From positions 6,673 through 70,672 of the forward strand of contig CACYHG010000004.1 of assembly GCA_902774175.1 (NCBI GenBank): 64,000 nt of DNA. The letters run 5' to 3'. Below, piece after piece: positions 4,586-15,090 of the stretch. The translations under genes were made by a program, and so were the position numbers. The stretch comes from an uncultured Bacteroidota bacterium. Its GTDB lineage: Bacteria > Bacteroidota > Bacteroidia > Bacteroidales > WCHB1-69. The notes under the pieces were generated by a model. That model saw only the letters and a program-made list of their open reading frames with translations. It made no database searches and was not told the origin of the DNA. Position 1 is the stretch's first letter, and each line of letters begins with the position of its first letter.

Positions 4586-4827
4586 TATTGAAATAATGAT
4601 TATTTTTGCGGCGTAAAAACGATGAACATGAACAGATATAAATGGTGACGATTTCATTAATGTAGTGCCGGTGGGGTGTTTGAAGGGGTAAGGAAAACTT
4701 TTTTTTCTATTCTTCATTCGGAAAAAAAATTGGGTGTATATGGAATATGTAATCATATTTTACGGAAATTTGCAAATTATTAATTGGTGTCTGCAATATA
4801 CAAATTGAGAAAGAGAATTTGAAAGGT

Positions 4828-7818
4828 ATGGCTCTTGAAAAACAAATAGAAGACCAGTTTATTAGATATTTAAGCGAAAATCTGAAATATGTCTATCGCG
4901 AGGACATTCATGACAGGAATTCGCTTGAGCGGAATTTTCGGGAGAAGTTCCAATCCTTGAATCGTTGTCATTTGACCGATAATGAGTTTGCCCGTTTGTT
5001 GGAGGAAATCACGGATTCGGATGTGTTCAACGCTTCGAAACGATTGCGTGAACGCAATACTTTCATGCGTGAAGATGGAACGCCGCTACAGTATATGTTG
5101 GTGAACATCAAAGATTGGTGTAAGAACGATTACGAGGTGATTCACCAGTTGCGCATGAACACACGGAACAGTTTTCAGCGCTATGATGTCATTTTGCTCA
5201 TCAACGGTTTGCCAGTCGTGCAGATTGAGTTGAAGACTTTGGATGTCAGTCCGCGCCGCGCCATGCAGCAAATTGTGGACTACAAGAACGATGCCGGCAA
5301 CGGCTACACCAATTCGCTGCTGTGTTTCATGCAAATGTTCATTGTGAGCAATCAGCATAATACCTATTATTTCGCCAATAATAACAAGGAGCATTTCAAC
5401 TTCAATGCTGAGGAAAAATATCTGCCTGTGTATCAATGGGCTGACGAGAAAAACCAGAAGATAACAGGTTTGGAGGCTTTTTCGGATGCTTTCTTGCAAA
5501 AGTGCCGCTTAGGCGAGATGATTAGTCGCTATATGGTTTTGGTGGCTTGTGAACGGAAGGTGCTGATGATGCGCCCATATCAGATCTATGCGGTAAAGGC
5601 GATTGTCAGTTGCATCAACGAGAACCGTGGCAACGGCTACATTTGGCACACCACGGGTAGCGGAAAAACACTCACTTCGTTCAAGGCTTCAACGCTATTG
5701 AAGGACAATCCTGAAATTGAGAAATGCCTTTTTGTGGTGGACCGTAAAGACCTCGATAAGCAAACGCGCGAGGAATTCAACAAGTTCCAAGAGGGTTGCG
5801 TGGAGGAAAACACCAACACGGATGCACTTGTCCGCCGTATGCTTTCCGAGGACTATGCCGACAAGATTATTGTGACCACCATTCAAAAGTTGGGCATTGC
5901 CCTTGATCCACAAAACCGCCGTAATTATCAGGAAAGGCTTATGCCGTTGAGAGACAAACGGGTGGTATTTATCTTCGATGAGTGCCATCGTTCGCAATTT
6001 GGCGATAACCATAAGGCCATTAAGGAGTTTTTCCCGAAATCGCAGTTGTTTGGGTTTACGGGAACTCCTATTTTTGAAGAGAATGCCACCTATACTCAAA
6101 GAACTGGTGAAGAGGCTAGATACAAGACTACGAAAGATGTCTTTCAAAAGGAACTGCATGCCTACACTATCACCAATGCCATTGAGGACAGGAATGTGCT
6201 GCGTTTCCATGTGGATTACTTCAAACCCGAAAAGTCGGATATGGCGGGAGAGACGGTGAAGAAATCTGCGGTTGTGCGTACCATTTTGGCCAAGCATCGT
6301 GCAGCCACCGCCGACGGGCGTTTCAACGCCATTCTTGCTACGGGTTCCATCAATGAGGCCATTGAGTATTACCATCTGTTCAAGGAGATGCAAGCACAAA
6401 AGTTAGAGATGGATAATACTTATGATCCTTTGAACATTGCTTGCGTGTTCTCGCCGCCCGCCGAGGGTAATCGTGACATCCAGCAGATTCAAGAAGATTT
6501 GCCACAGGAACAAAAAGACAACGAGCAGGAACCCGACAAGAAAAAGGCTGCCTTGATGACCTTCATTGCTGATTATAACAAGCAGTTTGGTACTAATTAT
6601 TCTGTGAACGAGTTTGATGCGTATTATCAGGATGTGCAGCAGCGTATCAAGAACCAGCAATACAGTAATAAGGACTATGCCCACGAGAACAAAATAGACA
6701 TCACGATTGTGGTGGATATGTTGTTGACGGGCTTTGATTCCAAGTATCTGAACACACTATATGTGGACAAGAACTTGAAATACCATAGTTTGGTGCAGGC
6801 CTTTTCGCGCACCAATCGTATCCTAAACGATAGCAAGCCTTACGGAAACATTCTTGACTTCCGTGGTCAACAGGAGGCCGTGGATACTGCCATCGCCTTG
6901 TTCTCTGGCGAGAAGAAGGAAGAGGCAAGACAAATTTGGTTGGTGGAACCTGCTTCGGTTATCAGGAAGAAATACCTTGATGCGGTGAATGGTTTGCGCA
7001 ATTTCATGGCACTTCATCATCTTGATTTTAAGGCGGAGGATGTGTTCAATCTGAAAGGTGACGATGCAAAGGCTGGTTTCATCGTTTGCTTCAAAGAAGT
7101 GCAGCGACTCAAGACACAACTCGACCAATATACTGACCTTGTGGAAGTTGAAGAGGAAAGCGCTCCGAGTTTTGTGGCAGAGCCGCAAGCATCGTATGGT
7201 TTCACTGATGATGACTTGCGGGCCTTCCGTGGGGCGTATCTCGACATTGCCCGCGAACTGAAAACACGAAGAGAAAAGTCGGATGCATCCGTTCCAAATG
7301 AGGTAGAGGAACTCGATTTTGAGTTTGTCTTGTTTGCTTCGGCCATGATTGACTACGACTATATCATAGAATTGATTTCCAAGTGTATGGGACAGCCAGC
7401 TAAATGGAAGATGACCAAAGAGGAATTGGTCAACTTGATTCGTTCGAGTGCCAACCTCCTTGACGACCGTGAGGACATTATTGCCTACATCGACAGCCTC
7501 GATGGCGTGAATGGTCGAACAGTTGATGAAATCAAGGATGGATACGAGGTCTTCAAGACGGAGAAATATGCCAAGGAATTGATGGCCATTGCTGAAAAAC
7601 ATGGTTTGAGTGTAGCCTCGTTGCAGGCTTTTGTGAACGACATTGTAGATCGCAAGATTTTCGATGGCGAAAAATTGAACGACTTGCTTGAACCCCTTGA
7701 TTTGGGTTGGCGCGACCGCACTCGCAAGGAAACCGAACTGATGAACGACCTTGTGCCGTTGCTGAAACGCTTGGTGCCTGGGCAAGAGATTTCGGGGTTG
7801 AAGGCGTATGAGGAATGA
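4828..7818 (+). CDS. hsdR: Type I restriction enzyme R subunit (HsdR)
   Basis: SF2 motif I is WHTTGSGKTLTSF and motif II is FIFDECHRSQ. The protein is about 1000 aa and sits in a locus with hsdS and hsdM. ATG at 4828 is preferred over the TTG at 4819. Confidence 0.9.
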   Translation: MALEKQIEDQFIRYLSENLKYVYREDIHDRNSLERNFREKFQSLNRCHLTDNEFARLLEEITDSDVFNASKRLRERNTFMREDGTPLQYMLVNIKDWCKNDYEVIHQLRMNTRNSFQRYDVILLINGLPVVQIELKTLDVSPRRAMQQIVDYKNDAGNGYTNSLLCFMQMFIVSNQHNTYYFANNNKEHFNFNAEEKYLPVYQWADEKNQKITGLEAFSDAFLQKCRLGEMISRYMVLVACERKVLMMRPYQIYAVKAIVSCINENRGNGYIWHTTGSGKTLTSFKASTLLKDNPEIEKCLFVVDRKDLDKQTREEFNKFQEGCVEENTNTDALVRRMLSEDYADKIIVTTIQKLGIALDPQNRRNYQERLMPLRDKRVVFIFDECHRSQFGDNHKAIKEFFPKSQLFGFTGTPIFEENATYTQRTGEEARYKTTKDVFQKELHAYTITNAIEDRNVLRFHVDYFKPEKSDMAGETVKKSAVVRTILAKHRAATADGRFNAILATGSINEAIEYYHLFKEMQAQKLEMDNTYDPLNIACVFSPPAEGNRDIQQIQEDLPQEQKDNEQEPDKKKAALMTFIADYNKQFGTNYSVNEFDAYYQDVQQRIKNQQYSNKDYAHENKIDITIVVDMLLTGFDSKYLNTLYVDKNLKYHSLVQAFSRTNRILNDSKPYGNILDFRGQQEAVDTAIALFSGEKKEEARQIWLVEPASVIRKKYLDAVNGLRNFMALHHLDFKAEDVFNLKGDDAKAGFIVCFKEVQRLKTQLDQYTDLVEVEEESAPSFVAEPQASYGFTDDDLRAFRGAYLDIARELKTRREKSDASVPNEVEELDFEFVLFASAMIDYDYIIELISKCMGQPAKWKMTKEELVNLIRSSANLLDDREDIIAYIDSLDGVNGRTVDEIKDGYEVFKTEKYAKELMAIAEKHGLSVASLQAFVNDIVDRKIFDGEKLNDLLEPLDLGWRDRTRKETELMNDLVPLLKRLVPGQEISGLKAYEE

Positions 7819-7841: not shown

Positions 7842-8372
7842 ATGATGATTTCTAACGAACAAGCTGATTATTTGATTCATTTGAAGAAGAAAATCTTTCA
7901 GAATGACAATGTTTTGGAGAATCTTGCCATAAACCAAGAGTTTCCATTGAACTTGCGTTATGAACTGGTTTCCGAAGATGATGATGAATTCACGTTTTTA
8001 TGGGTGATTACGCAAAGTGCAAAAAACGCCCTGAAGATTTCATTACACTATCAAGAAAATGAAAGTAACGTAGGTTTACTTAGGGTGGATTATTATGGGA
8101 CACATCAAAATCCATTTGCCGCAAAGGAGAACCTTCCCGACAAATTCCGACCTTATATAGGAAAGTTTTTCTCATACGATGAATGTCATGTGCATTATCA
8201 TGTTGAGGGGTATAAACCTTTGGCTTGGGCTGTTCCGATAGCAGATTCCGAAATGGACACAACAGAAATTACAGAAACGAATGTGAATCAACAGATGATT
8301 TCTGCTATTATGGATTTTGCCAAAATAATTAAAATTGAAACAAAAATAACTATTAATCCCTTGTTGTTATGA
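7842..8372 (+). CDS. Hypothetical protein (176 aa) embedded in the type I R-M locus; no family recognised
   Basis: The ORF starts at an ATG 24 nt after the hsdR stop. Its stop overlaps the next gene's start (ATGA at 8369-8372). It has a His/Cys-rich patch, SYDECHVHYHVEGY, and an LLRVDYYGTHQNP segment. Confidence 0.6.
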   Translation: MMISNEQADYLIHLKKKIFQNDNVLENLAINQEFPLNLRYELVSEDDDEFTFLWVITQSAKNALKISLHYQENESNVGLLRVDYYGTHQNPFAAKENLPDKFRPYIGKFFSYDECHVHYHVEGYKPLAWAVPIADSEMDTTEITETNVNQQMISAIMDFAKIIKIETKITINPLLL

Positions 8373-9160
8373 ATGATTGGTTTGAAGACAGTATTAGTCA
8401 GTATTATCACTGGTTAAGAGAAAAAACATTTACCAAATCTGATGGACAATCGGGTTGGATTGCAGTGTCCACTCCCTTTTTGGGACTTTTTAACGATCCT
8501 ATTGAAGTATACATGAGGTTACAGGGGGATACTATTTTGTTGTCTGACGATGGGGTTACATTAAAGAATCTGGCTTTATCGGGGGCGAACGTGACCCGTT
8601 CTCAAAAAAGGAAGGAATGGTTGGAATACATATTGTTAAATTACGGGGTCGAGCTACATAACGATGAATTATGTATTAGTGCGAAACAGGCTGATTTTCC
8701 ACAGAAAAAGCACAATCTGATTTGTGCCATATCAGAAATTTCAGACATGGAAATTACTGCGAAACACATAGTATCATCGTTATTTAAAGAAGATGTAAAA
8801 CAGCTGCTTGATGATCAAGGCATTATTTACACGCCCCAGTTTATCACGAAGGGAAGTACGGGTATAGAATTCACTTTTGACTTTCAGATTGCAAGCAGAG
8901 AAAAGGAATTGGTGCTGAAATCGTTCAATTCATTGAATAAAATCAATGTTCCAAGTTTCCTTTTTAGCTTGGACGATATCAAGCCTGTTCGAGAAAGAAC
9001 ATCTGGGAAACAGTTGCTTAGCCTTGCTGTGGTTAATGATGTGGAAAAAGAGATAAAACAAGAGTTCATTAGTGCATTACAGAGCAAAAACACAGACATC
9101 ATATATTGGAGTGAACGTAATAAACCCGAAAACATACAGAAACTTCATTTAGTAGCATAA
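8369..9160 (+). CDS. DUF1828/DUF1829-like two-domain protein (263 aa), function unknown
   Basis: The N-terminal segment GWIAVSTPFLGLFNDPIEVYMRLQGDTILLSDDGVTLKNL matches my recollection of DUF1828. The C-terminal half (GSTGIEFTFDFQI...) resembles DUF1829. It is translationally coupled to the upstream ORF. Confidence 0.6.
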   Translation: MNDWFEDSISQYYHWLREKTFTKSDGQSGWIAVSTPFLGLFNDPIEVYMRLQGDTILLSDDGVTLKNLALSGANVTRSQKRKEWLEYILLNYGVELHNDELCISAKQADFPQKKHNLICAISEISDMEITAKHIVSSLFKEDVKQLLDDQGIIYTPQFITKGSTGIEFTFDFQIASREKELVLKSFNSLNKINVPSFLFSLDDIKPVRERTSGKQLLSLAVVNDVEKEIKQEFISALQSKNTDIIYWSERNKPENIQKLHLVA

Positions 9161-9188: not shown

Positions 9189-9196
9189 TATCTTTG
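9189..9196 (+). promoter_or_regulatory. Candidate Bacteroidetes -7 box (TATCTTTG) inside the R-M locus
   Basis: It matches TAnnTTTG and lies in the 179-bp gap between the DUF1828/1829 gene and hsdS. It is about 145 nt upstream of the hsdS ATG, so the assignment is weak. Confidence 0.3.
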
Positions 9197-9339
9197 TGCT
9201 TTCAAATAAAAGCAATGTTTTATTTGAGAAACTTATTGATAATAAGCCTCTCAGGCGCGCCTTTGGCAGCATACTTGAGGGGCGTTTCTCATTTTATAAC
9301 CCCAGTTGTTACTAATTCTAACGAAAGAATCCATTGATT

Positions 9340-10563
9340 ATGGCCGAAGAACGAACATATAAGCACATCCCCGCCCTTCGCTTCACCGATTTCGCCAATG
9401 ATGGGGATTGGGAAGTGAAGCGATTGGGAGATTGTTTATTACAAACACCAGATTATGGAATAAATGCACCCGCGGTTCCTTTTTCTAACAATTTGCCGAC
9501 ATATTTGAGAATTACTGACATTTCTGATAATGGGCGTTTTATTAAAGAAGGGAAAGTTTCCGTTGACACCGTTTTAACAAAAGACAATTCCCTTCAAGAT
9601 GGTGATATAGTGTTTGCTAGAACAGGTGCAAGTGTTGGAAAAGTATATAAATATAGAAAAGAAGACGGCCCACTAGTTTTTGCAGGTTTTTTGATACGAG
9701 TTAAACCTAATGAAACCCGATTGAATTCTGGCTTTTTATTTCATTATTTGTTTACAAGTGCATATAAGAAATGGGTTGAGGTAACTTCAACAAGAAGCGG
9801 ACAGCCTGGAATTAATAGTGCTGACATTGCTTCTTTGCCAATTTTCTTTCCTCATCTTACCGAGCAGCAGCACATAGCAGTTTGCCTTTCTGCGGCAGAT
9901 GAAATGATTGCCACCACCAACGGAAAACTCGAACAACTGAAAGCCTACAAGAAAGGTTTGATGCAGAAACTATTCCCCGCCAAAGGCAAAAAACTGCCCG
10001 AACTGCGTTTTAAGGAGTTTGAGAAGGATGGGGAATGGGAAGAAAAGAAGTTGGGAGAGATAGTTAATGTTTTAGATTCTCAGCGCAAGCCTGTGGCAAA
10101 GAATGAGCGTATGAGAGGAAAATATCCGTATTATGGAGCTAATGGTATTCAGGATTATGTTTCTGATTATATTTTTGATGGTTCTTTTTTACTAATGGGT
10201 GAAGATGGGAGTGTCATTAACAAAGATGGCACACCAGTATTACACTGGGCAGAAGGGCGGATTTGGGTTAATAATCATGCACATGTAATGAGTGAAAACT
10301 GTAATGCTGCATATCTCAAATATGTATTTTATGTTCTTTCAAAAGTTGATGTGCAATCTCTGGTTAAGGGAATACCACCAAAAATAAACCAACAAAATAT
10401 GCGTAACATATTATTACTTATTCCATCTTTGCCAGAGCAGGTGAAAATTGCCTCATGCCTTTCCACATTGGATGAAAAGATAAATTCATACAAGGAAAAG
10501 ATTGCTCTATTGGGGCAATATAAAAAAGGATTGATGCAACAACTGTTTCCAACTTCAAAATAA
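9340..10563 (+). CDS. hsdS: Type I restriction-modification specificity subunit (HsdS), two target-recognition domains
   Basis: Two half-repeats each end in a conserved helix: LEQLKAYKKGLMQKLFP and IALLGQYKKGLMQQLFP. It lies between hsdR and hsdM. ATG at 9340 is preferred over the TTG at 9334. Confidence 0.85.
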   Translation: MAEERTYKHIPALRFTDFANDGDWEVKRLGDCLLQTPDYGINAPAVPFSNNLPTYLRITDISDNGRFIKEGKVSVDTVLTKDNSLQDGDIVFARTGASVGKVYKYRKEDGPLVFAGFLIRVKPNETRLNSGFLFHYLFTSAYKKWVEVTSTRSGQPGINSADIASLPIFFPHLTEQQHIAVCLSAADEMIATTNGKLEQLKAYKKGLMQKLFPAKGKKLPELRFKEFEKDGEWEEKKLGEIVNVLDSQRKPVAKNERMRGKYPYYGANGIQDYVSDYIFDGSFLLMGEDGSVINKDGTPVLHWAEGRIWVNNHAHVMSENCNAAYLKYVFYVLSKVDVQSLVKGIPPKINQQNMRNILLLIPSLPEQVKIASCLSTLDEKINSYKEKIALLGQYKKGLMQQLFPTSK

Positions 10564-10573
10564 TTCAAGAGAC

Positions 10574-11704
10574 ATGAAATTGATAGAAATAGCAAAACAG
10601 ATAAGAGAAGCGAAGGAAAGCATATTTCTCATATATGCATTCAATGGCACAGGAAAGACAAGGCTTTCTATTCAATACAAAGAAGATGCAAGAGAACAAC
10701 AGCCTGATGAAAATGGAAAAAGAAAGCAAACTGGAGTTTACTATAATGCCTATAGTGAAGACTTGTTCGTCTGGGATAATGACATTGAACATTCAGAGGA
10801 AAATATCAAGTTGCGTATAGTCCCAAGTAGTCTGAATGAGTCCCATTCATTGATTTATGAAGATGATGTAAGGCTAAAACTAAAACCATATAACCCAAAA
10901 TATGATTTTGTTTTCCATTCGTATGAGGATGACCCGTCAAAGGGTATTGAGTTTATTTCATTTCATTTGGATGACAAAGATGAAAAAAGCATAAAACTAT
11001 CTAGGGGAGAGGAAAGAATCTTTGTTTGGTGTTTTTTCTTGGCTTTGATTGATTCGGAAGGATGGGCGGACAAACAAAATCAGTATATTTTTATTGACGA
11101 TCCTGTTTCAAGCCTTGACGATCATAATATATTTGTGACGGCATTCACTTTGTTTGAACTTATCAAGAAGCATTACGAAACTCGAAAGATTATTATCACG
11201 ACTCACCATATCGGATTTGCAACAATTCTTGGCAATTGGCTAACGGATCCAAGTAATCATTTCAGAGGGAATAAAGGGAATAATAAATATCAACTCAGGG
11301 GATTATCATTAGATAATGGTGACTACTCGTTTGTTAGTTTTGCTGATAAGGCGGTTTGGCTTTATCATTTGAGAATGTTACAGGTTTTGGACAAAGCTAT
11401 TCAAGATGATGCAGATGATAGTTCGGAGAATGGAATTGAGGTCTATCATATGGCAATTTTGAGACAGATTTTGGAGAATATTTCTTCGTTTTTAGGTGTC
11501 GGAAGGATTGGTTTTGTGTTGGAACAAATTGGATATAGTAAAGAAGAGGCAGATAGAATAGCTCTTGAAGACAATGCTTTAACTCATAGGAATGTGTATT
11601 TCCCGCAATCCGATATCATGGTTCCTGATAATAAGAACCTGTTAATAGATGTGTTTAATAGAATTATCGAAAAGTATCATTTTGATTATAAAAGAATGCA
11701 ATAA
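10574..11704 (+). CDS. prrC: PrrC-type anticodon nuclease (ABC-like NTPase N-domain plus C-terminal ACNase domain)
   Basis: Walker A is LIYAFNGTGKTRLS, followed by YYNAYSEDLFVWDND. The signature-like motif is KLSRGEE, Walker B plus D-loop is YIFIDDPVSSLDDHN, and the H-loop is IITTHH. The C-terminal ILRQILENISSFLG (R-x3-E) and LTHRN (His) parallel the Arg320/Glu324/His356 triad of E. coli PrrC as I recall it. It is inserted between hsdS and hsdM with 10-nt and 3-nt gaps. Confidence 0.8.
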   Translation: MKLIEIAKQIREAKESIFLIYAFNGTGKTRLSIQYKEDAREQQPDENGKRKQTGVYYNAYSEDLFVWDNDIEHSEENIKLRIVPSSLNESHSLIYEDDVRLKLKPYNPKYDFVFHSYEDDPSKGIEFISFHLDDKDEKSIKLSRGEERIFVWCFFLALIDSEGWADKQNQYIFIDDPVSSLDDHNIFVTAFTLFELIKKHYETRKIIITTHHIGFATILGNWLTDPSNHFRGNKGNNKYQLRGLSLDNGDYSFVSFADKAVWLYHLRMLQVLDKAIQDDADDSSENGIEVYHMAILRQILENISSFLGVGRIGFVLEQIGYSKEEADRIALEDNALTHRNVYFPQSDIMVPDNKNLLIDVFNRIIEKYHFDYKRMQ

Positions 11705-11707
11705 AAT

Positions 11708-13291
11708 ATGACACAAAATAACCAACAAGAACTCGGTAAGACCCTTTGGAACATCGCCAACAACCTGCGCGGTGCAATGATGGCGGATGATTTCCGCGAT
11801 TATATGTTGTCATTCCTTTTCTGGAAATACCTGTCGGATAATTATATAAAATCAGCACAAAAGGAACTGGGCTCGGATTATACAGCCTTGCAAGTATGGT
11901 ATAAAGAAAATCCCAACGATACGCTGTTGTTTGAACGACAAATGCGGCGCAAGATTCATTATGTTATTGAGCCTCAATATCTTTGGGACAACGTTGTGGA
12001 ACTTGCCCGCACACAAAGCAATGATTTGCTTCAAACGTTGCAAGACGGTTTCAAATATATTGAAAATGAGTCGTTTGAAAGTTCGTTCAAGGGGTTGTTC
12101 TCTGAAATCAACCTGAATTCGGAGAAGTTGGGCAAGAACTACACCGAACGCAATGCACTTTTGTGCAAGGTCATCAAGACCATTGCCGACGGCCTTGCAG
12201 AGACCCCTTCGGACTCCGATGATCTGGGTGATGCCTACGAATACTTGATAGGTCAGTTTGCGGCAGGTTCGGGGCAAAAAGCAGGTGAGTTCTACACACC
12301 GCAAATGATTTCAACTATCCTTTCTCGTATCGTCACCCTCGACTGTCAAGACCCCACAACGGGCAAAAAGAAACGCATTGATAAAGTGCTCGACTTTGCT
12401 TGCGGTTCGGGCTCGTTGCTGCTGAATGTGCGCCGAGAAATGAAAGACCATGCTATCGGCAAGATTTACGGTCAAGAGAAAAACATCACTACCTACAACC
12501 TTGCCCGAATGAACATGCTGCTGCATGGTGTGAAGGACACAGAATTTGAAATCCACCACGGTGATTCGCTTGCCAATGATTGGGACATTCTCAACGAGCA
12601 GAATCCCGCCAAGAAGATGCAGTTTGACGCAGTGGTTGCCAATCCACCTTTCAGTCTGCGCTGGGATCCGACGGAAGAAACCGCCAAAGATTTCCGTTTC
12701 AATCGCTATGGAGTGGCACCCAAGTCCGCCGCCGATTTTGCTTTCTTGTTGCATGGTTTCCACTTCTTGAGCGACAACGGCACGATGGCCATCATACTGC
12801 CTCACGGCGTGTTGTTCCGTGGCGGCAAGGAAGAAGTCATCCGCAAGAAACTGCTTGAAGACGACAACATCGATGCCGTCATTGGCCTGCCTGCCAACTT
12901 GTTCTATTCCACCGGCATTCCGGTGTGCATCCTTGTGTTGAAGAAATGCCGCAAGAACGACAAGATTCTGTTCATCAATGCTAGCGGAGAGGAGCATTAC
13001 GAGAAAGGCAAACGCCAGAACTACCTTCGAGTCAAGAATGTGGATAAGATTGTGGAAACTTATCAATTCCGCAAAGAGGAACCGCGTTTCTCTCGCTTGG
13101 TTTCATTGGCGGAAATCAAGGAAAACGACTACAACCTCAATATCACACGCTATGTCAACCTGTCGAAGGAAGAAGAACAGATTGACCTTGAAGTCGTTAC
13201 CAAGCAACTGCATGAAACGGATGCAAAAATTGAGGAATCACGAGGCAAACTCAATGTGTTTTTGAAGGAGTTGGGGTTGGAGGAGATATAG
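11708..13291 (+). CDS. hsdM: Type I R-M N6-adenine DNA methyltransferase subunit (HsdM)
   Basis: The AdoMet motif is LDFACGSGSLLLN and the catalytic motif is VVANPPFS. The N-terminal HsdM_N-like segment is LWNIANNLRG. Confidence 0.92.
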   Translation: MTQNNQQELGKTLWNIANNLRGAMMADDFRDYMLSFLFWKYLSDNYIKSAQKELGSDYTALQVWYKENPNDTLLFERQMRRKIHYVIEPQYLWDNVVELARTQSNDLLQTLQDGFKYIENESFESSFKGLFSEINLNSEKLGKNYTERNALLCKVIKTIADGLAETPSDSDDLGDAYEYLIGQFAAGSGQKAGEFYTPQMISTILSRIVTLDCQDPTTGKKKRIDKVLDFACGSGSLLLNVRREMKDHAIGKIYGQEKNITTYNLARMNMLLHGVKDTEFEIHHGDSLANDWDILNEQNPAKKMQFDAVVANPPFSLRWDPTEETAKDFRFNRYGVAPKSAADFAFLLHGFHFLSDNGTMAIILPHGVLFRGGKEEVIRKKLLEDDNIDAVIGLPANLFYSTGIPVCILVLKKCRKNDKILFINASGEEHYEKGKRQNYLRVKNVDKIVETYQFRKEEPRFSRLVSLAEIKENDYNLNITRYVNLSKEEEQIDLEVVTKQLHETDAKIEESRGKLNVFLKELGLEEI

Positions 13292-13353: not shown

Positions 13354-14181
13354 ATGGGCAAAACAATAACAACCTATTTGATAGACGGTGACCCGAAAGG
13401 CACCCAATACGTGTTCATCAGCAATAAGATTTGCCAGATGTATGTGATTCCTCGTTCCAACCTCTCGATTCTGAATGAGCGACAGGAATTGCAGACCCCG
13501 GCATTTTATATTCTGTTGGGCGAGGATGAGACCACAAAGCCAAAGGCATACATCGGTGAGACAGAGAATTTCCGCGAGCGAGTGAAAGACCACGACAGTA
13601 AGAAAGAGTTTTGGCAAAAGGCACTGCTGTTTATCTCGAAAGATGCTGCTATGACAAAGGCTGACGTACAGTATTTGGAATATCGTGCTATCACAGAAGC
13701 GAAAACCTCAAATACGTTTGTTCTAAATGAGAACAAACAGTCACCCAAGGCTCCCAATCTTCCAGAATTCAGGAAGGACGATATGGACGCTTTCTTTGAA
13801 GATGTTAAATTCCTCACATCTTTTGTTGGCTGCAATATTTTTGATGTAGCCATACCTAAAGAAGAGCATCTTTTCTACACAAAGGGGCGTGGTTGTGATG
13901 CCAGAGGTTTCTATGATGCCAATGGTTTTACCGTATTAAAAGGAAGCATTGTTGCCAAAACATCTGTCCCTTCGCTCGATTGGAAAGAGAAACGTGCAAA
14001 CCTTCTCAAAGATTACACTATATCCAATGGCGACAAGTTGGAATTGGAAACAGACAAAACTTTCCCAAGTCCTAGCACCGCATCAATGTTTGTTTTAGGC
14101 CGTCCTTCCAATGGCTGGACCGATTGGAAAGATAAAGATGGACATACTTTGGATGATGTGTATAGGAAACAATTAGAATAA
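13354..14181 (+). CDS. GIY-YIG nuclease-like protein with a DUF4357-like C-terminus
   Basis: The GIY-YIG-like elements are PAFYILLGED...KAYIGETENFRERVKDH. The C-terminal FPSPSTASMFVLGRPSNGWTDWKDKDG resembles DUF4357. Confidence 0.7.
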   Translation: MGKTITTYLIDGDPKGTQYVFISNKICQMYVIPRSNLSILNERQELQTPAFYILLGEDETTKPKAYIGETENFRERVKDHDSKKEFWQKALLFISKDAAMTKADVQYLEYRAITEAKTSNTFVLNENKQSPKAPNLPEFRKDDMDAFFEDVKFLTSFVGCNIFDVAIPKEEHLFYTKGRGCDARGFYDANGFTVLKGSIVAKTSVPSLDWKEKRANLLKDYTISNGDKLELETDKTFPSPSTASMFVLGRPSNGWTDWKDKDGHTLDDVYRKQLE

Positions 14182-14352
14182 ATGATTGAAACACCATGAC
14201 TACCAACAGGAAAACATCGGAGTTTGTCACCCCGCAACCATTGGTTTTATACAACACGAGGCACACTCCTATTTTTCATTTTGCCTGTGCATCCAACAAT
14301 CAATCAGCGGTAAAAATCGCCAATGAAATAATTGAGAAAAAAAAGAAATAAA

Positions 14353-15090
14353 ATGAAAACAACAATAATTGAATGGACGGACAAGACTTGGAATCCCATA
14401 ACGGGATGCACCAAAAAGTCAGCTGGTTGCGCACACTGCTATGCGGAAGTGATGTCGCGGAGGCTGAAGGCCATGCGACTTGAAAAATACCGCAACGGCT
14501 TTGAGCTGACACTGCATGAGGACGATCTGTACGAACCTCTCCAATGGAAGAAATCGCACAACATCTTCGTGTGTTCCATGAGTGACATCTTTCACGAGAA
14601 GGTCCCGTTTGAATTTGTGGATAAGATTTTGCAAACAATAGAACAGACACCACAGCACCGCTATCAGATTTTGACCAAACGTTCGGAGAGAATGGCGGAA
14701 TATTTCAAATCGAGGAAAATACCAAATAATGTCTGGTTAGGAGCGACTGTGGAATGCAGGGATTCTAAAAAAAGGATTGACGATTTGAGGTCATTTGATG
14801 CCACGGTTAAATTTCTCTCCTGCGAACCCCTAATTGAGGATTTGGGCACCTTGAACCTTGATGGCATAGACTGGGTGATTGTAGGCGGCGAAAGCGGACC
14901 TTTTGCACGACCGATGAAACCTGAATGGGTAGTCAGTATCAAAGAACAAGTCGAGCAGCAAGGGGCTTCGTTTTTTTTCAAACAATGGGGAACCTGGGGA
15001 AGCGATGGCAAAAAACGCAGCAAACATGCGAACGGAAAGCTGTTGCAAGGAAAAGTAATACAACAAATGCCTGACACAAAAAACATATAA
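14353..15090 (+). CDS. DUF5131 / phage Gp37-Gp68 family protein
   Basis: IEWTDKTWNPITGCTKKSAGCAHCYAE (C-x6-C-x2-C) and WVIVGGESGP...FFFKQWG are characteristic of this family as I recall it. ATG at 14353 is preferred over the upstream alternative start at 14332. Confidence 0.75.
   Translation: MKTTIIEWTDKTWNPITGCTKKSAGCAHCYAEVMSRRLKAMRLEKYRNGFELTLHEDDLYEPLQWKKSHNIFVCSMSDIFHEKVPFEFVDKILQTIEQTPQHRYQILTKRSERMAEYFKSRKIPNNVWLGATVECRDSKKRIDDLRSFDATVKFLSCEPLIEDLGTLNLDGIDWVIVGGESGPFARPMKPEWVVSIKEQVEQQGASFFFKQWGTWGSDGKKRSKHANGKLLQGKVIQQMPDTKNI

Follow-up and report, generated by a model that had tools for sequence, protein, structure and literature searches.

A DUF6978-DUF1828/DUF1829 Gene Pair of the Defence Candidate Family PDC-M24 Inside a Type I Restriction-Modification Operon of an Uncultured Bacteroidota Bacterium

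Introduction

In 2024, Payne, Hughes, Fineran, and Jackson put forward 145 phage defence candidates by "guilt-by-embedding", with BREX, DISARM, and type I restriction-modification (R-M) loci as the embedding hosts (bioRxiv 10.1101/2024.01.29.577857). One of them, PDC-M24, corresponds to cassette CAS_00098 (FAM_00129>>FAM_00065), which was recorded with 153 occurrences and the entry "assign as candidate" (bioRxiv 10.1101/2024.01.29.577857). The present work deals with a gene pair of this family in an uncultured Bacteroidota bacterium. The stretch of DNA analyzed, hereafter called the window, comprises 64,000 nucleotides (contig CACYHG010000004.1 of GenBank assembly GCA_902774175.1, positions 6,673 to 70,672 of the forward strand). 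Within a type I R-M operon of this window, open reading frame (ORF) A (7842..8372, + strand, ATG start) encodes a protein of 176 amino acids and ORF B (8369..9160, + strand, ATG start) a protein of 263 amino acids. A preliminary description of the window, made from the DNA letters alone, had presented the two genes as a possible undescribed module. They are, however, already catalogued, and the right label for them is PDC-M24 candidate, not new discovery. Gene order, full-length matches, and type I R-M embedding are the same as in PDC-M24, and there is no difference in kind; what the window adds is a locus with PDC-M24 and PrrC inside one R-M operon.

Three further systems invite comparison. 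PrrC of the EcoprrI locus is, like the pair, an accessory gene that is embedded in hsdRMS and co-oriented with it, and a PrrC homologue is present in the very locus studied here. PrrC combines an ABC ATPase with an anticodon-nuclease domain and has no sequence or fold relation to the pair. HipAD/DS-6, reported with DefensePredictor (Science 2026), is a validated two-gene defence system in which DS-6B, a DUF3037+DUF1829 protein, is proposed to bind its HipA-like kinase partner and DNA (PMC13092281). Both HipAD/DS-6 and the pair consist of two genes, the second with a DUF1829 domain, but the likeness is one of Pfam domain name: DS-6B is built from DUF3037+DUF1829 and not from DUF1828+DUF1829, and its partner is a HipA-like kinase and not a DUF6978 protein. 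Type II toxin-antitoxin (TA) operons share with the pair the two small genes, the 4-nt ATGA overlap, high mobility, and scattered solo, plasmid, and prophage copies. No helix-turn-helix or ribbon-helix-helix antitoxin domain was detected in the pair.

Results

Both Proteins Belong to PDC-M24

Protein A, which the preliminary description could not assign to any family, matched Pfam DUF6978 (PF22398) with an E value of 9e-18 and 65.3 bits against a gathering threshold of 29.6. Over residues 2-175 of its 176 residues it also matched the PADLOC-DB v2 model PDC-M24A (PDLC04537, 2.3e-57). Protein B had been described as a two-domain DUF1828/DUF1829 protein, and this was correct. DUF1828 was matched by residues 35-124 (8471..8740, + strand; E value of 2.3e-25, 89.2 bits, threshold 22.0) and DUF1829 by residues 162-250 (8852..9118, + strand; 1e-18, 68.1 bits, threshold 22.2), and residues 4-256 matched PDC-M24B of PADLOC-DB v2 (PDLC04539, 5.5e-92). 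Both PDC-M24 models were therefore matched by adjacent genes, A preceding B and overlapping it by 4 nt. NCBIfam gave no match for A or B, and PHROGs returned families of unknown function only, B matching phrog_5059.

The reading frames were as first described with regard to number, size, and position. The stop codon of A and the start codon of B share the sequence ATGA at 8369..8372 (+ strand), an overlap consistent with translational coupling. ORF A starts 24 nt past the last base of hsdR (7818), so that 23 nt lie between the two genes.

A and B Are Inherited as a Pair

Homologues were collected in two surveys. The B-seeded survey used one genome per species and covered the 80 best loci (53-86% identity), and the A-seeded survey covered 66 loci on metagenome contigs with room downstream. 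A homologue of A was located directly upstream of B on the same strand in 77 of the 80 genome loci, and a full-length B followed A in all 66 metagenome loci. The stop codon of A and the start codon of B overlapped by exactly 4 nt in 73 of the 77 genome loci. The 4-nt overlap was found in plasmid copies as well, and distant A homologues in Flavobacteriia (37-41% identity) were each followed by B with the same overlap. Given these linkage counts, the pairing of A and B is far beyond chance, and the initial view of a conserved, translationally coupled two-gene module has been upheld. Pairwise identities of A and B were correlated (r = 0.93, 134 loci). A evolves faster: its mean identity was 52% compared with 65% for B, and the identity of A was below that of B in 99.4% of the pairs. 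Clustering at 50% identity gave 322 clusters for A among 1.84 billion representatives, which makes A a small family. In the best 150 of these 322 family representatives A was always a stand-alone protein of about 100-225 amino acids and was never fused to another domain.

The Pair Occurs Inside and Outside R-M Operons

The homologue survey showed that the genes are linked not only to each other but often also to R-M or other defence loci. Of the 80 genome loci, 46 had type I hsd genes within 10 kb, and these were co-oriented with the pair in every case. Flanks of at least 5 kb on each side were available for 33 loci; of these, 18 were embedded in type I R-M loci, 1 was adjacent to such a locus, and 14 had none (about 58% R-M). 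The proposed linkage to R-M is thus real and takes the form of an enrichment in type I R-M operons. Three gene orders recurred, R-A-B-S-(x)-M as in the window, M-S-A-B-R, and M-A-B-S-R. The hsdR families differed widely between these arrangements (E = 0 versus about 1e-30 to the window HsdR), and in several loci the hsdR reading frame opened within 4 nt of the B stop codon. Neighbors of other kinds were a Type ISP enzyme immediately upstream of the pair in L032 (4451-9385) and L037 (6405-9452), a type IIG-like methyltransferase near the pair in L059, and Cas9 adjoining it in L073 (10840-14871). A neighbor-joining tree of B required no fewer than 10 switches between the R-M and the solo state, compared with a mean of 18.5 and a minimum of 15 after shuffling.

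Solo chromosomal copies stood among housekeeping genes, for example in Flavobacteriia. The pair was also found on the IncP-1 plasmid pRSB223 and the Acetobacter plasmid pAOF1 and in 13 IMG/VR contigs. The copy on pAOF1 of Acetobacter orientalis (AP018516.1; L175, 4504-4980) consists of an intact DUF6978 gene with a GTG start that shares an ATGA overlap with the DUF1828 gene. This DUF6978 gene is unannotated publicly, and the public record (AP018516.1) lists small spurious 'prophage protein' ORFs at its site.

Prophage copies were identified in Lactobacillus prophage Lj965 (Ljo_0292/0291), Staphylococcus phage 37 (ORF031/ORF014), and Streptococcus phage Javan197 (L087-L089). Their upstream genes were missed by tblastn but recognized as DUF6978/PDC-M24A by hidden Markov models with E values of 1e-31 to 1e-38. 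All three are temperate phages that carry the pair in their lysogeny module. It is placed between the genes for the cI-type repressor and the integrase, has the same orientation as both, and has no hsd genes near it. The slot between repressor and integrase is the usual site of immunity genes that are expressed in the lysogen. These three Firmicutes phages are genetically tractable natural systems for PDC-M24. Taken over all collections, the pair was found in Bacteroidota, Chlorobiaceae, Brocadiaceae, Thermodesulfobacteriota, Lentisphaeria, Firmicutes phages, plasmids of Proteobacteria, and the archaeon Methanimicrococcus. An integrase or transposase traveling with the pair was seen neither in the window nor in most loci.

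The pair behaves as an autonomous, horizontally mobile two-gene cassette that is often lodged in R-M operons and in further regions of defence or accessory genes. Because it also occurs solo, beside Type ISP enzymes or Cas9, on plasmids, and in prophages, its behavior is not that of an obligate R-M accessory or guard.

A Is Lost While B Stays Intact

In 13 of the 80 B-seeded loci, A was destroyed, whereas B was full-length. The lesions in A were nonsense mutations (L041, L062), six frameshifts (L052, L053, L059, L063, L068, L078), 5' truncations (L019, L034), deletions that spared no more than the final ~25 codons and the junction (L043, L046), and complete absence (L082). B kept every conserved residue checked in 12 of these 13 loci, the remaining one (L053) having D142N, and Asp171, Gln173, Glu180, and Lys184 of B were kept in all 13. 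In contrast, a defective B was encountered in none of the 66 A-seeded loci (0/66 versus 13/80, Fisher p = 2.6e-4), a comparison that draws on two collections, genomes for the B-seeded and metagenome contigs for the A-seeded loci.

Five of the frameshifts (L052, L059, L063, L068, L078) were +1 or -1 shifts in the same poly-A run at codons ~59-62, one of them in the complete genome of Methanimicrococcus hongohii Hf6. The homologous run of the window is an A6 tract at codons 60-62 of A, which is in frame (8021..8026, + strand); homologues of this tract have 8-9 A. The sixth frameshift (L053) fell into a different A-run, at the codons for H88-x-N90. The five shifts may stem from phase variation, from a mutational hot spot, or from sequencing error in the homopolymer. 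Since comparable A-runs exist elsewhere in the gene, phase variation at the poly-A run is only a lead. The nonsense mutations and deletions, on the other hand, cannot be homopolymer sequencing artefacts.

An intact, conserved B next to a destroyed A implies that B is no lethal toxin in its own right, dependent on A for neutralization, and speaks against A as an essential antitoxin. The decay pattern points either to A as a licensing or sensing subunit whose loss silences the system or to A as a costly component that needs B. It is A, not B, that appears as the dispensable or costly partner.

Predicted Structure and Conserved Residues of B

The AlphaFold2 model of B had a pLDDT of 87.9 and a pTM of 0.52, the latter value indicating two domains of uncertain mutual orientation. 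A Foldseek search against the PDB gave VC1899 as the best match (7.7e-5) and many matches at probability 1.0. Further matches were Bax1, Can2, Card1, Cdn1, AF1548, the small subunit of R.BspD6I, the R2 RLE endonuclease, and the cap-snatching endonucleases of bunyaviruses and arenaviruses. All of these we take to contain PD-(D/E)xK nuclease domains. As VC1899, Bax1, AF1548, R.BspD6I, and R2 RLE were each matched at probability 1.0, the prediction of a PD-(D/E)xK nuclease fold for B is solid. The matches most likely come from the C-terminal DUF1829 part, because residues about 107-222 are predicted to follow the order alpha-beta-beta-beta-alpha-beta. Sequence and profile searches against the PDB yielded nothing meaningful for B.

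Card1, Can2, VC1899, and Cdn1, effectors of CRISPR type III and related signaling that join a sensor domain to a PD-(D/E)xK nuclease, were the best Foldseek matches (E values of 7.7e-5 to 7e-3). Their overall plan, with a regulatory domain at the N-terminus and a restriction-endonuclease-like domain at the C-terminus, would also be that of B. Whole-chain TM scores were low (0.26-0.35), with a partial superposition only, DUF1828 is predicted as a beta-meander plus helices and not as an obvious CARF Rossmann fold, and no cyclase or CRISPR genes are linked to the pair.

Asp171, Gln173, Glu180, and Lys184 of B were invariant in all 81 sequences of the subfamily (53-100% identity), and so were Asp60, Asp61, Thr64, Arg81, Glu100, Gln112, and Arg208. 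In the phage copies, which are 25-30% identical, the invariant residues were Tyr12, Pro36, Phe37, Asp60, Asp61, Thr64, Arg81, Asp142, and Asp203, mostly in DUF1828 and the linker. Asp60, Asp61, and Thr64 form the SDDGxT motif of DUF1828, which is kept even in these distant copies.

Predicted Structure and Conserved Residues of A

A is a small acidic protein (pI 4.9). Its AlphaFold2 model (pLDDT 94.7, pTM 0.91) consists of an N-terminal helix, a six-stranded antiparallel sheet, and then helices and strands. In an alignment of 66 members with 24-53% identity, Lys16, Arg81, His88, Asn90, Pro91, His116, His118, Trp129, Ala130, and Pro132 were invariant, and Phe52, Asp83, and Pro99 were nearly invariant. 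The peptides DECHVHYHVEGY and LLRVDYYGTH, to which the preliminary description had drawn attention, are both present in A. The R-x6-H spacing noticed in the second has proven to be a family trait: Arg81 and His88 are invariant across the family, together with Lys16, Asn90, and Pro91. The codons for R81-V-D83-Y-Y-G-T-H88-Q-N90 span 8082..8111 (+ strand), and alignments showed Arg81, His88, and Asn90 to be kept in the phage homologues, too. The patch noted as His/Cys-rich did not hold up as such. His116 and His118 (HxH; codons at 8187..8195, + strand) are invariant in the 66 diverse members, but the neighboring Cys115 and His120 are not conserved, and a His/Cys metal patch was rejected on account of Cys115. 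Judged from the residue pattern, the conserved polar site of A resembles one for the binding or catalytic conversion of a phosphate-containing ligand. As the preliminary description had stated, no enzymatic function of A can be read from its sequence.

Several known families were considered for A and rejected. The invariant R-x6-H recalls HEPN RNases, which have an Rx4-6H motif in an all-alpha-helical bundle, but the model of A is mainly beta and places Arg81 and His88 where a beta-hairpin ends, so that A is not a HEPN protein; HEPN matches were absent from the Pfam, PADLOC, and Foldseek results. For an HIT hydrolase, with its HxHxHxx motif inside the HIT fold, there was only a local match of 24 residues (HxHxH..G.K.LAW) to 3oj7 with E values of 0.56-1. 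It was lost with a broader profile, no HIT structure was among the Foldseek hits, the third histidine is not conserved, and hhalign against HINT1 returned a probability of 17%. A cupin-like HxH...E was discerned by eye, but Glu122 is not invariant, and no cupin was among the Foldseek hits.

Discussion

We read the pair as an autonomous, mobile anti-phage module that resembles abortive infection or TA systems and is independent of and additional to HsdRMS and PrrC, and we hold this reading with about equal confidence and doubt. That the pair has a defence function of some sort appears rather probable. Its defence contexts are of several unrelated kinds: type I R-M, Type ISP, IIG-like, Cas9, and lysogeny modules. 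The preliminary description had spoken of a defence or guard module. The defence part accords with the standing of PDC-M24 as a phage defence candidate in PADLOC, whereas the guard part does not fit a pair that is found solo, on plasmids, and in hsd-free prophages. Only tentatively do we suggest a division of roles in which B is the nuclease-fold executor that is inert alone and A is its licensing or sensing partner.

The data show the pairing and coupling of A and B, their distribution, the nuclease-fold matches of B, the conserved residues, and the one-sided decay. That the two proteins form a complex, serve in defence, divide the roles in this way, and include an active nuclease we infer, and the following mechanism can be envisaged. 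The ATGA overlap would set a fixed ratio of A to B, and the two proteins would form a complex. B, inert by itself, would be the executor by way of its C-terminal DUF1829 domain with the PD-(D/E)xK nuclease fold, and its N-terminal DUF1828 domain (SDDGxT, Arg81, Glu100) could provide a regulatory or ligand site. A would be the faster-evolving licensing or sensing subunit. Its constellation of Lys16, Arg81, His88, Asn90, His116, and His118 might switch B on after binding or processing a phage cue or a small ligand that contains phosphate.

A number of observations weigh against this reading. The structure search, which led from B to PD-(D/E)xK nuclease folds, gave no significant neighbor for A in the PDB (best Foldseek E value 0.13, TM score at most 0.26) or in BFVD (best E value 0.1), and sequence and profile searches against the PDB returned nothing meaningful for A. 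Both A and B are acidic. In the phage copies of B the putative nuclease residues are not strictly conserved: Asp171 is replaced by Asn in Javan197, Lys184 by Arg, and Glu180 varies. The E180-x3-K184 spacing (ExxxK) is not the canonical (D/E)xK either, and B may therefore bind nucleic acid rather than cut it. Fourteen of the 33 well-flanked loci lie away from type I hsd genes, and the neighbors in hsd-negative loci are mostly heterogeneous housekeeping genes. A as sensor or activator fails to explain why intact A without intact B was absent (0/66 versus 13/80). All 145 candidates, PDC-M24 included, were put forward without an assay (bioRxiv 10.1101/2024.01.29.577857). A full-text literature search found no paper naming PDC-M24 and no phenotype for DUF1828 or DUF6978. 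PdpSau is a different, membrane-anchored protein.

The main rival is a toxin-immunity model with the roles reversed, in which A is an active, costly enzyme of new fold that works through its K/R/H/N/HxH site and B is the neutralizer, a DNA-binding regulator and possible sensor whose PD-(D/E)xK-fold domain is non-catalytic. We regard this model as unlikely. In its favor is the asymmetric decay: A was inactivated in 13 of 80 loci that retain an intact B, whereas none of the 66 loci with an intact A had lost B, as would be expected of an orphan antitoxin and a never-orphan toxin. The invariant constellation in A looks catalytic, and in distant copies of B the nuclease residues degenerate, whereas the DUF1828 residues stay. 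A precedent is available in HipAD/DS-6, where the DUF1829 protein DS-6B is proposed to be a HipB-like partner of a toxic kinase (PMC13092281). What speaks against the reversed roles is that A, with its pI of 4.9 and its faster evolution compared with B, is more typical of antitoxins or sensors, that no fold or family ties A to any enzyme, and that the decay surveys drew on different collections, genomes in one case and metagenome contigs in the other. A proposal in which DUF6978 is an enzyme or toxin of unseen fold that carries, at its K16/R81/H88/N90/HxH site, the activity of an anti-phage module widespread in bacteria, archaea, phages, and plasmids, the DUF1828/DUF1829 protein is the immunity or sensor component, and the poly-A run is a reversible off-switch seems decidedly unlikely to us.

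It is also rather improbable that the pair does not serve defence at all and is a selfish addiction module or takes part in mobile-element housekeeping such as DNA processing, accumulating in R-M and prophage regions that tolerate insertions. Solo copies among housekeeping genes, copies on plasmids and on viral contigs beside resolvases and homing endonucleases, a composition foreign to the host, and the lack of an experimental phenotype in the literature would all agree with such an explanation. Set against it are the absence of an accompanying integrase or transposase in the window and most loci, the co-orientation and tight coupling with hsd genes, which suggest operon membership over random landing, and the prophage slot between repressor and integrase, generally the place of lysogen-expressed immunity genes.

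In a PrrC-style guard, the pair would be kept latent by HsdRMS and set free once the complex has been disabled by an anti-restriction protein of a phage. The strong same-strand enrichment in type I R-M operons, the hsdR frames that often open within 4 nt of the B stop codon, the Type ISP enzymes directly upstream in L032 and L037, and the precedent of PrrC itself (bioRxiv 10.1101/2024.01.29.577857) are what such a guard would lead one to expect. PrrC, however, is almost exclusively embedded according to Payne et al. (bioRxiv 10.1101/2024.01.29.577857), and the pair is not: 14 of the 33 well-flanked loci are without type I hsd genes, and many copies on Flavobacteriia chromosomes, on plasmids, and in prophage lysogeny modules have no R-M genes within 10 kb. 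As the pair so often does without R-M genes, latency imposed by HsdRMS is unlikely. Moreover, the neighboring hsd gene varies with the arrangement, the hsdR families differ widely, and there are at least 10 context switches on the B tree. The guard explanation is therefore very unlikely. A classical type II TA system with upstream A as labile antitoxin and downstream B as constitutively toxic nuclease, although it would suit the gene order, sizes, and ATGA overlap of the commonest type II layout, the acidic and faster-evolving A, and the nuclease-fold matches of B, is highly improbable, as a toxin cannot outlive its antitoxin and a free toxic B would be lethal, whereas in 13 independent loci the upstream A is destroyed and the downstream nuclease-fold gene is conserved, the opposite of the antitoxin-first expectation.

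If PDC-M24 does work in defence, the immune repertoire of prokaryotes would gain a compact module of two proteins, with a range that takes in Bacteroidota, Chlorobiota, Planctomycetota, Desulfobacterota, Firmicutes phages, proteobacterial plasmids, and a methanogen. Of the two, A has a confidently predicted fold without a PDB or BFVD neighbor and a sharply defined invariant polar site. With the orphan fold of A, the wide distribution including prophage lysogeny modules, and the asymmetric decay, PDC-M24 is a well-defined experimental target. The locus itself would not surprise a specialist who uses PADLOC.

Organization of the Surrounding Locus

The genes around the pair in the window belong to a type I R-M operon that also carries a PrrC-like gene. 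hsdR (4819..7818, + strand), which encodes the complete restriction subunit, is located directly 5' of A. hsdS (9340..10563, + strand), with two target-recognition domains, follows B after a gap of 179 nt, as the preliminary description had it, when ATG 9340 is taken as the start; with the upstream TTG at 9334 the gap is 173 nt. ATG 9340 is the hsdS start called in close relatives (407 amino acids). Between hsdS and hsdM lies the gene for a PrrC-like ABC-ATPase of 376 amino acids (10574..11704, + strand), which matched PADLOC PrrC at 1.4e-92 and has an AAA_13 domain, in agreement with the earlier naming of PrrC as a member of this locus. hsdM (11708..13291, + strand) was recognized by a domain match. 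Directly 3' of it is a PDC-S14 candidate with GIY-YIG and DUF4357 domains (13354..14181; PADLOC 9.7e-85), and a DUF5131 protein is encoded at 14332..15090. The latter was recognized by the models PDC-M30B and PDC-M41B (about 1e-114), but an A partner is not evident. Together with these two downstream PADLOC candidates, the hsd/prrC/PDC-M24 locus is a small defence island.

Base composition sets the inner genes apart. The GC content is 35.0% for A, 37.2% for B, 34.6% for prrC, and 38.4% for hsdS, compared with 46-47% for hsdR and hsdM and 49.9% for the whole window. GC at third codon positions is 0.32-0.38 in A, B, hsdS, and prrC, 0.56-0.58 in hsdR/hsdM, and 0.64-0.80 in the flanking housekeeping genes. 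Within the R-M operon, these variable inner genes give the impression of recent acquisition or exchange, and in the window the pair is low-GC cargo in the putative hsdR transcription unit. In a close relative with an otherwise near-identical hsdR-A-B-hsdS arrangement (L003, 5781-8646), a SIR2_2 gene and a HerA/DUF87 ATPase gene occupy the prrC slot after hsdS. This replacement shows cassette exchange at that slot.

A sigma-70-type promoter scan of the locus was uninformative for this phylum. The consensus of the Bacteroidota -7 promoter box is TAnnTTTG. A match to this motif, TATCTTTG, is situated in the gap between B and hsdS (9189..9196, + strand), and a second one lies upstream of hsdR at 4601-4608. 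They are two of eight matches in all on the + strand between 4.4 and 13.5 kb. The motif at 9189 may mark a putative internal promoter for hsdS-prrC-hsdM, and the positions of the two boxes would fit two transcripts, hsdR-A-B and a separate hsdS-prrC-hsdM.

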